A DNA stretch of 64,000 nt from Parcubacteria group bacterium GW2011_GWA2_47_26 (GCA_001001705.1 LCOG01000005.1:40714-104713); one strand, 5' to 3'. Shown: positions 1 to 64,000, counted from the stretch's first letter. Translations and numbers: made by a program. Notes: a model not told the origin generated them from the letters alone.

Positions 1-583
1 TTGGATTGATTGTAGTGCGTTTTAGGGCGGCGAGTTCGGAAACGCGCAAGCCCGTAGAAAATAGCATTTCTAAAATTGTTTTATCGCGCAGATGCAGGAG
101 GTCTGTCATTCTGAGGCGTTCAGCCGAAGAATTTCGGGATCCTTCGCTGCGCTCAGGATGACGCTTTGCGTCGTTTTTAACGTTAAGCGGCGCCTCAAGC
201 AAGCGCTCAAGATCGTCGGCTTCAAGAAAGGCAACTTGGCGTTCCGGCATTTTACTCAATTCAATTTTTTCTGCCGCAAGAGTCGCAATGTCGCGTTTGG
301 CCAAATATTTTAAAAAGGCGCGCAAGGCAATGAGATGGTAATTTTGGGTATTTTTTTTAAGCTCGGCGCCGGCTTTGTCGCGCAAACGATTTAGCCAGAG
401 CCGGTACTCGCGTACGAGATCTTGAGTTACGTTGGCAGGGGAGGTTGCCCTGCATTTTGCGGCCCATTCCACAAACCTTCCTAAATAGAATTGGTAATTT
501 TCAAGGGTGCGCCGGGAACGCCCGCGTTCAACTTCCAGATATTCTAAAAACTGGCGTAAAAGTGTAGAGAGGTTCATGGTCAT
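1..583 (-). CDS. Tyrosine recombinase, XerC/XerD family (N-terminal ~194 codons; rest of gene lies beyond the window start)
   Basis: My own minus-strand translation (not in the ORF track because it runs off the edge): MTMNLSTLLRQFLEYLEVERGRSRRTLENYQFYLGRFVEW...LRDKTILEMLFSTGLRVSELAAL. This is a SAM-like N domain plus the start of the catalytic domain. It carries an in-frame family-A repeat (105-162). Confidence 0.8.
   Translation of the reverse strand, partial: MTMNLSTLLRQFLEYLEVERGRSRRTLENYQFYLGRFVEWAAKCRATSPANVTQDLVREYRLWLNRLRDKAGAELKKNTQNYHLIALRAFLKYLAKRDIATLAAEKIELSKMPERQVAFLEADDLERLLEAPLNVKNDAKRHPERSEGSRNSSAERLRMTDLLHLRDKTILEMLFSTGLRVSELAALKRTTINP
105..162. repeat. Family-A element (short form), in frame in the recombinase CDS
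   Basis: GTCATTCTGAGGCGTTCAGCCGAAGAATTTCGGGATCCTTCGCTGCGCTCAGGATGAC. The minus-strand peptide is KRHPERSEGSRNSSAERLRMTD. Confidence 0.85.
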
Positions 584-590
584 GTGTCGG

Positions 591-648
591 GGAAAAAGAG
601 AACACTTCTAAATTTTGCAAAGCAAAATTAGAGGCGTTCTCTTTTTCC
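591..648. repeat. Family-B palindrome (intergenic variant)
   Basis: GGAAAAAGAGAACACTTCTAAATTTTGCAAAGCAAAATTAGAGGCGTTCTCTTTTTCC, just upstream of the recombinase start. Confidence 0.9.
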
Positions 649-832
649 TCCGCATGCGCTGATTAGTGTCGCACAATCTACTTTACCAAGAAAGGCGACT
701 AGACACAAGATGGGGATTATGGTATACTAAACCCAGCTTATAATTTATAATTGACGCTTTGTTCGGTTTGACGCAGGAGCGACGTCAAAAAGGAACAGTC
801 CTTATACTTGGCAGAGCGTGTCTTTATAGCCT

Positions 833-1096
833 ATGCTCAATAAAAAGAAAAAAGAGAGGATCATTGAGAAATTTAAAACCCATGCGGGAGATACGGGTTC
901 TCCGGAGGTCCAAGCCGCCCTGTTGTCCGCGGAGATTGAGGATTTGCAAGAGCACTTGCATGAACACAAAAAAGATTTTTCCTCGCGCCGCGGGCTTTTG
1001 CGCAAGGTTTCGGAACGCCGACGACTGCTCAAATATTTGGAAGGGGAGAGTCAAGATCGCGCAGTGGACTTGAGGAAAAAATTAAAGTTGGACTAA
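833..1096 (+). CDS. rpsO: 30S ribosomal protein S15
   Basis: 87 aa. [51 protein letters not shown] is a typical S15 sequence. Confidence 0.95.
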
Positions 1097-1132
1097 GAGT
1101 GGTTGAATCAGAAATCATGAATTTTAAAAAGT

Positions 1133-61730: not shown

Positions 61731-61776
61731 ATGCGCAAAGTTGTAGAGATCATGTTTTGCGAAAGGGGGTGAGCGT

Positions 61777-62076
61777 ATGACAGTTATAAAAAGAGTTGAT
61801 CCAATGTCTCTGGCAAAGATCCAGGGGTTGATTGGGGTTGCTTTGGGATTGATTACCGGTTTGTTTGCCGGATTATTTGGAACCATGATGGGTTCTTTGG
61901 GGGGGTATGGCGCAGGAGGATTTGGAGCGATGATGTACGGAGGGGTGGCGGCAATATTTTTTATGCCGGTTCTCTACGGAATTTTTGGTTTCATTGCAGG
62001 GCTTGTTGGAGGATGGGTTTATAATGTAGTAGCGAAGTGGGTTGGAGGAGTAGAGGTTGATTTGGAGCAGAAGTAA
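61777..62076 (+). CDS. Small Gly-rich membrane protein, unknown function
   Basis: 99 aa with hydrophobic segments LIGVALGLITGLFAGLFGTMMG and GVAAIFFMPVLYGIFGFIAGLVGGW. Confidence 0.5.
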   Translation: MTVIKRVDPMSLAKIQGLIGVALGLITGLFAGLFGTMMGSLGGYGAGGFGAMMYGGVAAIFFMPVLYGIFGFIAGLVGGWVYNVVAKWVGGVEVDLEQK

Positions 62077-62180
62077 TTAATATTTTTTTCTGAATGTGCA
62101 GGTTTTGATCCGTCCTGACAGTGGGGCGGATCTTGTTTTATTTATAAAGTTAAGCTACTGTGGAGGTGCTAGTTTTGATT

Positions 62181-63407
62181 ATGGAACACGTTTACGTTAT
62201 TCATTATCACGAGATTGCGCTTAAAGGGAGAAACCGGGCGCTGTTTTTGCGGCAGTTGCAGAAAAATATTTGCCGCGCGACAAAAGTGTCGATTGGGCAG
62301 GTAAAAATTGCGTCGGGCAGGTTGATTGTGGAGATTGCCGCGTTACCTACGAAAAATAGGGACGTTTCTAATTTTGCTGCGCAAAATTTAGAGACGTCCA
62401 ATTTTTCTTCTCCTCGCAATGACATTAAATTAGCACTGCGGCGCGTGTTTGGAATTTCCTCTTTTGCGTCGGCGGTTTTGGTTAAAGCGGACTACGATGA
62501 AATTCAAAATGCCATCAAAACTTTCATACTTCCAAGTTTGGAAGTATTTAGTACGTTTGCGATTGCAGCCTCAAGGGGAGACAAGCAGTTTGCTATGACG
62601 TCGCATGATCTTGAGGTTAAGCTCGGAGATTTTATACGCACAGAGTTTGGCAAAAAAGTTGATCTCACTCATCCCGAAGTGACTTTTTATGTGGAGATTT
62701 TTCAGGGCGGCGCGCTTGTGTATATTGATAAAATACCAGGAGCGGGTGGTTTGCCGGTGGGCACGCAGCCTAAAGTAGCAGTCTTGCTTTCCGGGGGAAT
62801 TGATTCTCCGGTCGCGGCTTATCGCGTAATGAAACGCGGCGCGCCAGTTCTCGGTGTGCACTTCCATAGCCATCCATTTACTTCGCGCGCTTCTATTGAT
62901 AAAGTAAAAGAGTTGGCCAGAATTTTAGCCAGTTATGGCGGGCTTAATAAATTGTATCTTATACCCTTTGCTGACGCGCAGAAAATTATTGTACAGAAGA
63001 CCGCGCCAAAGTATCGCGTGCTTTTATATAGGCGGCTGATGTTGCGCATTGCCGAGCAAATTGCGGCTAGAGAAAACGCCCTGGGTTTGGCAACGGGAGA
63101 AAGCATCGGACAAGTGGCATCCCAGACTATTGAAAATTTGCGGGTTATCAATGCGGCGGCACAGCTGCCAGTTTTCCGGCCGCTTATTGGCTATGATAAA
63201 GAAGAGATAATTGCGGAGGCAAAAAAGATTGGGACTTTTGAGATTTCAATTTTGCCGCACGACGACTGCTGTACAGTATTTATGCCAAAAAATCCCGCAA
63301 CGCGAGCAAGATTGATTGATGTGGAAGGGGAAGAGGCAAATATTGATATTGCGGCACTCATGCGTAGTACCTTGGCGCAGTGCGAGGAGATGATTATAAA
63401 AATATGA
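62181..63407 (+). CDS. thiI: tRNA 4-thiouridine(8) synthase ThiI
   Basis: YHEIALKGRNRALF (N-terminal ferredoxin-like/THUMP region). PP-loop LLSGGIDSPVAAY. One in-frame family-B palindrome. Confidence 0.9.
   Translation: MEHVYVIHYHEIALKGRNRALFLRQLQKNICRATKVSIGQVKIASGRLIVEIAALPTKNRDVSNFAAQNLETSNFSSPRNDIKLALRRVFGISSFASAVLVKADYDEIQNAIKTFILPSLEVFSTFAIAASRGDKQFAMTSHDLEVKLGDFIRTEFGKKVDLTHPEVTFYVEIFQGGALVYIDKIPGAGGLPVGTQPKVAVLLSGGIDSPVAAYRVMKRGAPVLGVHFHSHPFTSRASIDKVKELARILASYGGLNKLYLIPFADAQKIIVQKTAPKYRVLLYRRLMLRIAEQIAARENALGLATGESIGQVASQTIENLRVINAAAQLPVFRPLIGYDKEEIIAEAKKIGTFEISILPHDDCCTVFMPKNPATRARLIDVEGEEANIDIAALMRSTLAQCEEMIIKI
62351..62407. repeat. Family-B palindrome, in frame in thiI
   Basis: GAAAAATAGGGACGTTTCTAATTTTGCTGCGCAAAATTTAGAGACGTCCAATTTTTC encodes KNRDVSNFAAQNLETSNFS. 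Confidence 0.9.
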
Positions 63408-64000
63408 CTAACCTTTATATTGTTGCGACGCCTATTGGAAATTTGGAAGATATTACTTTGCGGGCTTTGCGGATTTTGAAAGAAGTTGATTTTATTATTT
63501 GCGAAGATACGCGGGTAACTTCCAAACTTTTAGCGCATTATCAAATTAAAAAGCCGCTTGTAAGCTATTTTCAGCATAGCAAGTCGTCGCGCGTGGAAGA
63601 GATCGTGTCACGGCTTGGGCGCGGCGAAAGCGCCGCACTCGTAACTGATGCAGGAACGCCAGGGATTTCTGATCCAGGGGGTATGCTAGTCAGTCAGGTG
63701 ATTAGGCAATTAGGTAATCAGGTGACGGTCATGCCGATACCGGGGCCAAGCGCAGTGGCGGCGGCGCTTTCTATATCAGGGTTGCCGGCGGATAGCTTTT
63801 TGTTTTTAGGTTTTCCGCCGCATAAAAAAGGACGTCAGAAATTTTGGCAAAAAGTTGCGGAGTGTAAAGAGACAGTGGTATTTTATGAGTCGCGGTATCG
63901 GATTACAAAGGCTTTGGATGAATTGGGTGTCATCCTGAGCGTTAACGAAGGGTATCTCGCGCATGCGAGTGCATCCGCAGAAAAGCTGCGGGATTCTTCG
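63404..64000 (+). CDS. rsmI: 16S rRNA (cytidine1402-2'-O)-methyltransferase RsmI (3' end beyond the window)
   Basis: My own translation: MTNLYIVATPIGNLEDITLRALRILKEVDFIICEDTRVTSKLLAHY...SDAGTPGISDPG. ATGA overlap with the thiI stop. Carries an in-frame family-A element at 63929 onward. Confidence 0.85.
   Translation, partial: MTNLYIVATPIGNLEDITLRALRILKEVDFIICEDTRVTSKLLAHYQIKKPLVSYFQHSKSSRVEEIVSRLGRGESAALVTDAGTPGISDPGGMLVSQVIRQLGNQVTVMPIPGPSAVAAALSISGLPADSFLFLGFPPHKKGRQKFWQKVAECKETVVFYESRYRITKALDELGVILSVNEGYLAHASASAEKLRDSS
63929..64000. repeat. Family-A element, in frame in rsmI (runs to window end)
   Basis: GTCATCCTGAGCGTTAACGAAGGGTATCTCGCGCATGCGAG...GGGATTCTTCG encodes VILSVNEGYLAHASASAEKLRDSS. 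Confidence 0.8.

Follow-up and report, generated by a model that had tools for sequence, protein, structure and literature searches.

A dispersed palindromic repeat with in-frame copies in a Parcubacteria genome and its probable membership of the CGTC/TGTC-tagged REP superfamily

A stretch of 64,000 nucleotides from the groundwater Parcubacteria group bacterium GW2011_GWA2_47_26 (GCA_001001705.1 LCOG01000005.1:40714-104713; hereafter the window, with positions counted from its first letter), a member of the Candidate Phyla Radiation (CPR), carries a dispersed, palindromic, non-autonomous repeat that is here called family A. Of its 16 loci, 11 lie within long open reading frames (ORFs) and five between ORFs. 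Taken as a whole, the family is probably best explained as a subfamily of the CGTC/TGTC-tagged repetitive extragenic palindromic (REP) sequences. Its anatomy appears to suit this superfamily better than it suits a MITE (miniature inverted-repeat transposable element), and its in-frame insertion into genes would, by analogy, repeat what Rickettsia already shows. What may be new here is the ATYCTGA/GNA subfamily itself, its presence in at least 20 phyla and its intragenic density (11/16, versus 11/124 among the matches listed elsewhere). The same stretch, including the elements, is found in three independently assembled public data sets or contigs.

The block GTCATYCTGA occurs 19 times in the window, compared with 0.10 expected from dinucleotide-preserving shuffles (none of 100 reached 19), and the variant GTCATTGCGAG occurs four times, compared with 0.01 expected. 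When each left terminus is paired with a right one, full elements of 58-105 bp result. A one-arm covariance model, run over the whole window with filters off, detects 29 arms at the 16 loci (E <= 0.025) and none elsewhere, and dimers with outward-facing tags make up 14 of the 16 loci. A crude ORF map gives the window a coding fraction of approximately 0.905. An earlier note, made from the sequence alone, had proposed 16 copies, five intergenic and 11 coding; this count is borne out by the covariance model and the ORF map, and the termini are strongly enriched. It had also described conserved termini around central parts that differ strongly between copies. This description is incomplete, as each element contains four conserved blocks, GTCATYCTGA, GAAGRATC, GATYCTTC and TCAGRATGAC, of which the two inner ones are equally conserved. 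Three variable modules, one loop in each arm and a central spacer, split these blocks, and they are hairpin modules. The supposed recognised ends are instead the outer halves of two separate hairpin units, with a third stem position that covaries within the arm.

The unit of the repeat is one arm, which reads YGTC, AT[N]CT, GA, a variable stem-loop, GA, AG[N']AT and C (a 25-nt example is TGTCATTCTGAGCGAAGCGAAGAATCTC). The arm folds so that the YGTC tag is left unpaired and AT[N]CT/AG[N']AT form a stem of 5 bp; next come a tandem G.A/A.G step and a short, variable stem with a C-GNA-G loop at its tip, and the tail is C-rich. A typical copy consists of two inverted arms, tags outward, separated by a variable spacer (median 22 nt), which in many cases folds into its own hairpin or continues the helix. 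GTC is invariant in the arms and is preceded by T in 256/317 (81%) and by C in 45/317 (14%); in an unbiased metagenome sample the base before GTC is T in 71 of 81. Covariation is also seen in the variable inner stem, at its first pair (G-C 182, A-T 51), and among simple hairpins the loop is GNA in 118/194 and the closing pair C-G in 179/194. Tandem sheared G.A pairs of the form 5'-YGAR-3' are stable in DNA. GCGNAGC and C-G-closed d(GNA) loops are described as unusually stable DNA mini-hairpins (PMC13037366, PMC3201870). At their apex the family-A arms very often carry GCGNAGC or xCGNAGx, closed by a C-G pair as in these mini-hairpins, which those papers treat as a biophysical motif and, in their abstracts, do not link to REPs.

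That the constraint acts on the arm is seen from the N-N' pair, which within arms outside the seed elements is C-G in 23 cases, T-A in 22, G-C in three, T-G in two and C-A in one. In the metagenome sample, collected with all four variable positions left free, N-N' pairing is of the Watson-Crick type in 154/162 (95%) within arms versus 93/162 (57%) between arms. N and N' thus covary within the arm and not between arms, and the unit is therefore the single arm. In an alignment of 67 arms, standard pairs fill 98.1% of cells compared with 85.6% in shuffles, a value that none of 500 shuffles reaches, and slid controls give 20-55% pairing. Columns 5/37 (A-T) and 6/36 (T-A) of this alignment are invariant, including in window variants that had not been collected by pattern. 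A rule that dimers combine a T-arm with a C-arm held in 10 of 12 window copies but was dropped, as the metagenome sample contains 44 homodimers and 29 heterodimers.

The 11 genic loci lie in genes for a Xer recombinase, a Wzy-like protein (three loci), three family 4 glycosyltransferases (GT4), a family 2 glycosyltransferase (GT2), a membrane protein and RsmI, and Pfam supports the host genes Wzy_C, the three GT4, the GT2, ThiI and an RsmI-like TP_methylase. The dimer at 105-162 (T-arm then C-arm) is located in the minus-strand Xer-like recombinase gene (2-607) and is read as RHPERSEGSRNSSAERLRMT, amino acids 149-168 of the windowed ORF. The Wzy-like gene (6467-8140) contains in-frame dimers at 6768-6861 (amino acids 101-132, RHSERLPAQAGSEESRGGKNGILQSLYSFRMT), at 7032-7134 (amino acids 189-223, in the opposite orientation to the copy at 6768) and at 7854-7947 (amino acids 463-494), the last being a T/T dimer with a degenerate right terminus (ATAAC). 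In the GT4 gene 8137-9447 the dimer at 8416-8505 (amino acids 94-123) has a decayed left arm (GTTATCCTGA...), and the covariance model detects its right arm only. The GT4 gene 9543-10934 holds a dimer at 9673-9749 (amino acids 44-69) and a T/T dimer at 10257-10361 (amino acids 239-273), the latter in the linker of two Rossmann-like domains, and the third GT4 gene, 31214-32524, holds one at 31821-31920 (amino acids 203-236) between the Pfam matches to the N-terminal and C-terminal domains. An ATTGC/ATCGC variant dimer at 46038-46115 is in frame in the GT2 gene 45531-46637 (amino acids 170-195, VIASGAKQSHRWGEEIATTPSVSRDD), and the dimer at 63929-64000 in the RsmI-like gene (63407 onward) starts at amino acid 175 and is cut off by the window end. 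A single arm on the minus strand at 35227-35251 (GTCATTCCGAACGCAGTGAGGAATC, read as RFLTAFGMT), in frame in the membrane-protein ORF 33897-35672, has a covarying stem ATTCC/GGAAT and is the half copy that had been placed near 35225. A remnant arm terminus GTCATTGCGAG, also on the minus strand (62413-62423), lies in ThiI between the ferredoxin-like and THUMP domains, where it is joined to a copy of a different palindrome family (62350-62400).

These copies enter their genes in one of two ways. Entry as xGT-CAT (C/R-H-S/P-E) is combined with exit as ATG-ACx (...RMT) and with copy lengths of 1 modulo 3, which the flanking Y and R bring to a multiple of three; entry as GTC-ATT (VIL) is combined with exit as AAT-GAC (...QND) and with lengths that are multiples of three. 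The window peptides are accordingly of the types VILSEAKNL, CHSERSEES, ...QND and ...RMT, and translation reproduces the C/R-H-S/P-E...RMT and VIL...QND peptides quoted in the earlier note. All 11 genic copies are open, in frame and of a length that matches the entry frame. Across 204 copies found in other genomes, no more than 26.8% of all frames lack stops, the stop within TTCTGA closes the third frame in every case, and the copy lengths are spread evenly over the three residue classes. The genic copies, limited to the two stop-free frames per strand and to additions of multiples of three, therefore appear as a selected subset that is read through. They are probably not cut out of the mRNA, and the inserts would be translated, adding 20-35 hydrophilic, predicted-disordered residues at inter-domain linkers and loops.

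The GT4 protein encoded by 9543-10934 was compared with 21 orthologues (36-63% identity), and both insert peptides fall in alignment gaps at variable loops, with 20 of the 21 orthologues lacking the peptide at each site. This comparison supports the view of the earlier note that the copies are in-frame insertions, and it speaks against conserved protein motifs. The exact insertion boundaries are not definable at the nucleotide level, because the closest non-identical orthologue is only 56% identical. An AlphaFold model built on the orthologue alignment has a mean predicted local distance difference test score (pLDDT) of 81.9 and a predicted template modelling score of 0.83, and its sole long segments with pLDDT below 50, amino acids 44-67 and 244-274, are the two inserts. 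Alignments of ThiI and RsmI to solved structures halt or restart at the inserts, that to Escherichia coli RsmI ending where the element at 63929 begins, and the remaining inserts lie between domains or in loops as judged from Pfam limits. For GT4 31214 and GT2 45531 the alignments to solved structures are fragmentary, and the inserts are placed there from the Pfam domain limits. In several CPR orthologues of the GT4 protein 9543-10934, P0017, P0014 and P0002 among them, the same three loops hold peptides that stem from repeats of their own: VILNKVKDPSDHKLRDSSATPQNDN stands exactly at the second insert site in P0017, and P0014 has VIASETKQSQ...LAMT at a third loop. These three loops appear to be either insertion hot spots or the sole sites at which insertions are tolerated.

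The five intergenic copies are all dimers. That at 1133-1211 (C-arm then T-arm) lies just 3' of ORF 759/833-1096, which by eye we take to be S15-like, and upstream of ORF 1231-1857. The copy at 2921-2996 (T-arm then C-arm) has a degenerate right terminus (GCAGGATGAC), and that at 4504-4601 is an ATTGC...GCAAT variant (GTCATTGCGAG...CTCGCAATGAC) in which both arms hold long hairpins rich in GC. A canonical dimer of 68 bp at 6213-6280, upstream of the Wzy-like gene, has the arm apexes GCGAAGC and ACGCAGT. The dimer at 45451-45519 has a hairpin spacer and two arms that are perfect hairpins, GTC-ATTCCCGCG-AA-CGCGGGAAT-C and GTC-ATCCCCGA-...-TCGGGGAT-C, of the CGTC-1/dRS3 type discussed below.

Beyond the window, at least 120 loci match an exact three-block pattern in bacterial genomes represented by one genome per species. 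The matches listed include at least 20 phylum-level groups: Nitrospirota, Omnitrophota, Acidobacteriota, Planctomycetota, Verrucomicrobiota, Chloroflexota, Bacillota, Bacteroidota, Chlorobiota, Ignavibacteriota, several proteobacterial classes, Bdellovibrionota, Myxococcota, Nitrospinota, Deinococcota, Aquificota, Melainabacteria and several CPR groups, with cultured isolates of Pedobacter, Mucilaginibacter and Sulfurihydrogenibium among them. Of the 124 copies outside the window among these matches, 11 lie within long ORFs, most of them in Micavibrio, Rickettsiales, Omnitrophota or Parcubacteria. The other CPR genomes sampled mostly hold the element between genes. The high genic share found here (11/16) is therefore a property of this genome or locus. 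No record of a phage collection matches, and the plasmid matches are three Planktothrix records only. In Planktothrix agardhii plasmids the element is in frame in PglX/MmeI-type genes, beside a PQTPTVI tandem repeat (NZ_LR882951.1 15073-15747, locus L124, and NZ_LR882964.1 16794-17468, locus L125), and one or two full copies are present depending on the strain: one strain has one full copy plus arm remnants and the other two full copies. This difference in copies is the only direct sign of turnover obtained. Tandem arrays of three to four dimers with shared flanking segments and a regular spacing of approximately 75-135 bp were also seen in Pedobacter nototheniae and in two Clostridia or Lachnospiraceae genomes (L032 3547-4109, L088 5479-5816 and L011 7582-7723).

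The CGTC-tagged REP superfamily has been described by Di Nocera, De Gregorio and Rocco (2013, BMC Genomics 14:522; PMC3733652). Its tag is often TGTC, its stems begin with A-T pairs and its tails are short; the elements are mostly dimers with the tags outside (HH), and heterodimers and structured spacers are common. The published families CGTC-1 to CGTC-4 have fully paired stems of 8-9 bp and loops of 4-5 nt, CGTC-1 corresponding to Neisseria dRS3 and the Rickettsia palindromic element (RPE) RPE-6 and CGTC-4 to RPE-4. They are reported in five phyla, mostly in Alphaproteobacteria, with in-frame intragenic copies that encode peptides such as VIPAKAGI, CHSRESGNP, SFPRKRES...DSRFRGND and ...AGMT, with no dedicated transposase and with no association with a REP-associated tyrosine transposase (RAYT). 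Family A shares with these repeats the unpaired CGTC/TGTC tag, the two opening A-T pairs (GTC-ATTC...GAAT-C), the short tail, the tag-out arrangement in homodimers and heterodimers, the structured spacers, the lack of a dedicated transposase and the in-frame peptides VI..., CHS..., ...ND and ...MT; the parallel peptide tables imply the shared frame GTCATTC...GAATC. The window copy at 45451-45519 bears the CGTC-1 stem ATTCCCGC/GCGGGAAT with the loop GAAC (ATTCCCGC-GAAC-GCGGGAAT), and the CGTC-2 peptide RHSELVSGS of Sulfurovum could be back-translated compatibly with GTCATTCTGAA...TTCAGGATC. Family A and the published families differ in reach, at least 20 phylum-level groups including CPR for family A versus the five phyla reported, and in the inner stem, whose place in the main family-A arm is taken by a tandem G.A step and a GCGNAGC-type mini-hairpin with a loop of 3 nt.

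The RPEs resemble family A in being translated as extra surface segments and in the possibility of several insertions per gene. Insertion of RPEs in frame into numerous housekeeping genes of a host-dependent bacterium with a small genome is reported from work by Ogata et al. in 2000 and 2002. The RPEs differ from family A in host phylum and stem sequence, and RPE-1, of approximately 100-150 bp, is unrelated in sequence; RPE-6 and RPE-4 were compared with family A through published peptides only (SFLRKQES..., DSRFRGND and VIPWLDHGI). The GTAG-tagged REPINs (Bertels and Rainey; E. coli TnpA-REP, PMC8266576) likewise consist of two inverted hairpins that combine into a longer one, are non-autonomous and lack target duplications, and single-stranded DNA hairpins are their presumed substrate (PMC8266576). 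Unlike family A, they flank a single-copy RAYT gene, are lineage-specific and are inherited vertically, whereas family A has a YGTC tag, a local RAYT-like gene with other flanking repeats and the same sequence across phyla. In the literature covered, string searches for the 16-20-nt core of family A returned only primers and unrelated matches, and nothing relevant was found on MITEs or palindromic repeats in CPR or Patescibacteria.

In a classical MITE, a deletion derivative of an insertion sequence, the terminal inverted repeats GTCATYCTGA/TCAGRATGAC would be bound as double-stranded DNA by a DDE transposase encoded elsewhere; the termini are indeed highly enriched inverted repeats, the size of 58-105 bp fits, the copies are dispersed in both orientations, and a 64-kb window leaves room for the transposase elsewhere in the genome. 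This reading is nevertheless distinctly improbable, as the covariation runs inside each arm and not across the two ends, single arms exist, and the same blocks recur in at least 20 phyla, unlike lineage-bound MITE families. The target-site duplication that the earlier note had proposed to look for is absent from 124 copies, in which identical flanks of 2-6 nt are about as frequent as chance predicts, whether the boundary is set at GTCAT/ATGAC or one base outside it. Neither the window nor the 120 listed loci of approximately 8 kb each contain a parent element that combines these ends with a transposase gene (whole genomes were not searched), and in an all-against-all comparison of the ORFs from these loci no transposase gene recurs, the only enzymes found repeatedly within approximately 4 kb being histidine kinases, ABC ATPases and aminoacyl-tRNA synthetases. 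The MITE-like character given in the note thus holds in the sense of a dispersed palindromic non-autonomous repeat and fails in that of ends recognised by a transposase. The note had also considered the RAYT at 27288-27887, which would mobilise the dimers in the manner of REPINs. The window does contain this Y1_Tnp/REP_Tyr_transpos-like ORF, the dimer architecture is REPIN-like, and Y1 enzymes handle hairpins without target duplication (IS200/IS605, E. coli TnpA-REP). However, at 32 bits the ORF stays far below the curated cut-off of 80, and a perfect inverted repeat of 18 bp (27374-27417) lies in its 5' part; it may be a decayed or interrupted gene. On both sides it is flanked by a different palindrome, GTGGCCTAGCCAC (27145, 27857 and 27879), and the covariance model finds no family-A arm within 4 kb of it, the nearest copy being approximately 4 kb off. 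Since the ORF has these different palindromes of its own, nothing ties it to family A; the family-A tag is moreover YGTC and not GTAG, and no RAYT association is reported for CGTC REPs (PMC3733652). We regard its role as mobiliser as improbable.

A function in transcripts, as a terminator, stabiliser, processing site or excised intervening sequence, would agree with the strong covariation, the deep sequence conservation and the G-T pairs in the stems, and intergenic copies just 3' of ORFs recall the mRNA-stabilising REPs that have been reported (PMC3733652). Family A has, however, no Rfam match (whole window at gathering scores; family-A copies in 6000-10500 at E <= 10), the matches obtained being limited to generic hairpin matches on other palindromes. 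Both orientations occur in one gene (6768 versus 7032), the GA/GNA face is present on one arm per strand only, and the C-GNA-G triloop with tandem G.A pairs is a DNA motif (PMC13037366, PMC3201870). An open frame in 11 of 11 genic copies, when 27% of frames are open, would be needless if the copies were excised, and we judge a functional RNA very improbable. A hammerhead-like reading of CUGA...GAA was also tried and rejected, as it has no Rfam match and the element is symmetrical on both strands. That the elements are conserved protein motifs or low-complexity linkers of enzyme families might be suggested by the likeness of the encoded peptides and by the similar peptide of orthologue P0017 at the same loop, yet each site is free of the peptide in 20 of 21 orthologues, the same DNA occurs between genes, on both strands and in two reading frames, and it recurs in proteins that are unrelated and in different phyla, for the most part outside genes; this explanation can practically be discarded.

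Several points also weigh against assignment to the tagged REPs. The family-A arm, in which 5 bp are followed by a G.A step, at least 2 further bp and a loop of 3 nt, appears to match none of the four published CGTC families exactly; the main arm has nine stacked positions if the G.A step is counted. It may be a variant of CGTC-2 or a fifth family. Under standard DNA energy rules, which give no bonus for GNA loops or sheared G.A pairs, isolated arms are weak (-1.6 to -1.9 kcal/mol) and the whole dimer folds as one long hairpin (-12 to -25 kcal/mol). Most of the structural statistics come from copies collected with patterns that fix the conserved blocks, and translation of the inserts is deduced from the open frames. 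No enzyme, empty site or excision product was observed, and this assignment does not account for the near-identity of the sequence across so many phyla.

If family A is a subfamily of the tagged REPs, its copies would spread as single-stranded DNA hairpins, and the enzyme that cuts and joins them, leaving no target duplication, would act in trans from a gene located elsewhere; the Y1/HUH enzymes of the GTAG REPs offer, by analogy, the best precedent. In a small, densely coding genome of a probably host-dependent bacterium, weak selection may then keep intragenic copies, as in Rickettsia. One might go further and propose that the ATYCTGA-[C-GNA-G]-GAAGRAT arm represents an undescribed pan-bacterial branch of tagged REPs, recognised as single-stranded DNA either by a widely shared host enzyme or by an unrecognised one that travels horizontally; we consider this rather unlikely. 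Were it true, the near-identity in at least 20 phyla, the DNA-specific motifs and the absence of a linked gene would together point to recognition of single-stranded DNA.

Other palindromes accompany family A in the window. A second family with arms GGGACGTTTCTAATTT / AAATTTAGAAACGTCCC and an 8-nt loop gives 11 arm matches versus 0.8 expected. Its five full copies (12054-12117, 32103-32156, 46725-46776, 48030-48071 and 62350-62400) all lie within ORFs, for example those of GT4 31214-32524 and ThiI, and code for NRDVSNFAAQNLETS-type peptides; related sequences are located at 591-648 and 21073-21142. A third family (CCCCTTAAKCTAAGGGG) gives nine matches versus 0.2 expected, with copies at 5960-5976, 6108-6124, 6147-6163, 8089-8137, 2755-2771 and 2832-2848; the C-terminal end of the Wzy-like protein (PPLTLRGGEGEL) is encoded by the copy at 8089-8137. 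The same peptides, PPLNLRGG and PPLILRG, are also found at variable loops of GT4 orthologues from other CPR genomes and in a Rickettsiales IleRS (locus L059). The GTGGCCTAGCCAC palindromes around the RAYT-like ORF span 27143-27175 and 27857-27895, with a related pair at 47847-47880, and an inverted-repeat family built on GCAGAGTAAGCAGATTAAGCA occurs at 21397-21488 and 41448-41529 (from the inverted-repeat list only).

Two further features were noted. ARAGORN calls a tRNA-Thr(GGT) on the minus strand at 20337-20413, opposite an ORF of 2186 amino acids (14457-21017); the call is probably false, because Rfam at its gathering score finds no tRNA in the window. The region 2000-6000 has a GC content of 0.59-0.61 compared with approximately 0.46 elsewhere, and long ORFs overlap in it on both strands (2980-4002 and 4661-5911), one of which has a weak Cu-binding_MopE match in the public contig annotation. 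This region may be foreign or misread DNA.

CGTC-type tagged REPs are common and, to our knowledge, nobody knows what moves them. To these repeats family A adds a constraint that acts per arm, a GCGNAGC apex flanked by tandem G.A pairs and the same blocks from Aquificota to CPR with no linked gene. Taken together, these three facts restrict the candidates to an enzyme that recognises single-stranded DNA in hairpin form, and they make a defined oligonucleotide substrate available. The inserts bear on how these proteins are annotated, grouped into families and modelled in structure. Short spurious ORFs are known to trouble the annotation of REPs (PMC3733652), and for annotation in general it is relevant that copies in other bacteria lie mostly outside long ORFs among the matches listed. 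For CPR bacteria, the window indicates that repeat invasion, besides point mutation, would lengthen and diversify glycosyltransferases and a Wzy-like polymerase, with up to three inserts per gene. If the pan-bacterial branch proposed above were real, several palindrome families could together be a major source of new loops in the envelope-biosynthesis enzymes of some CPR bacteria.

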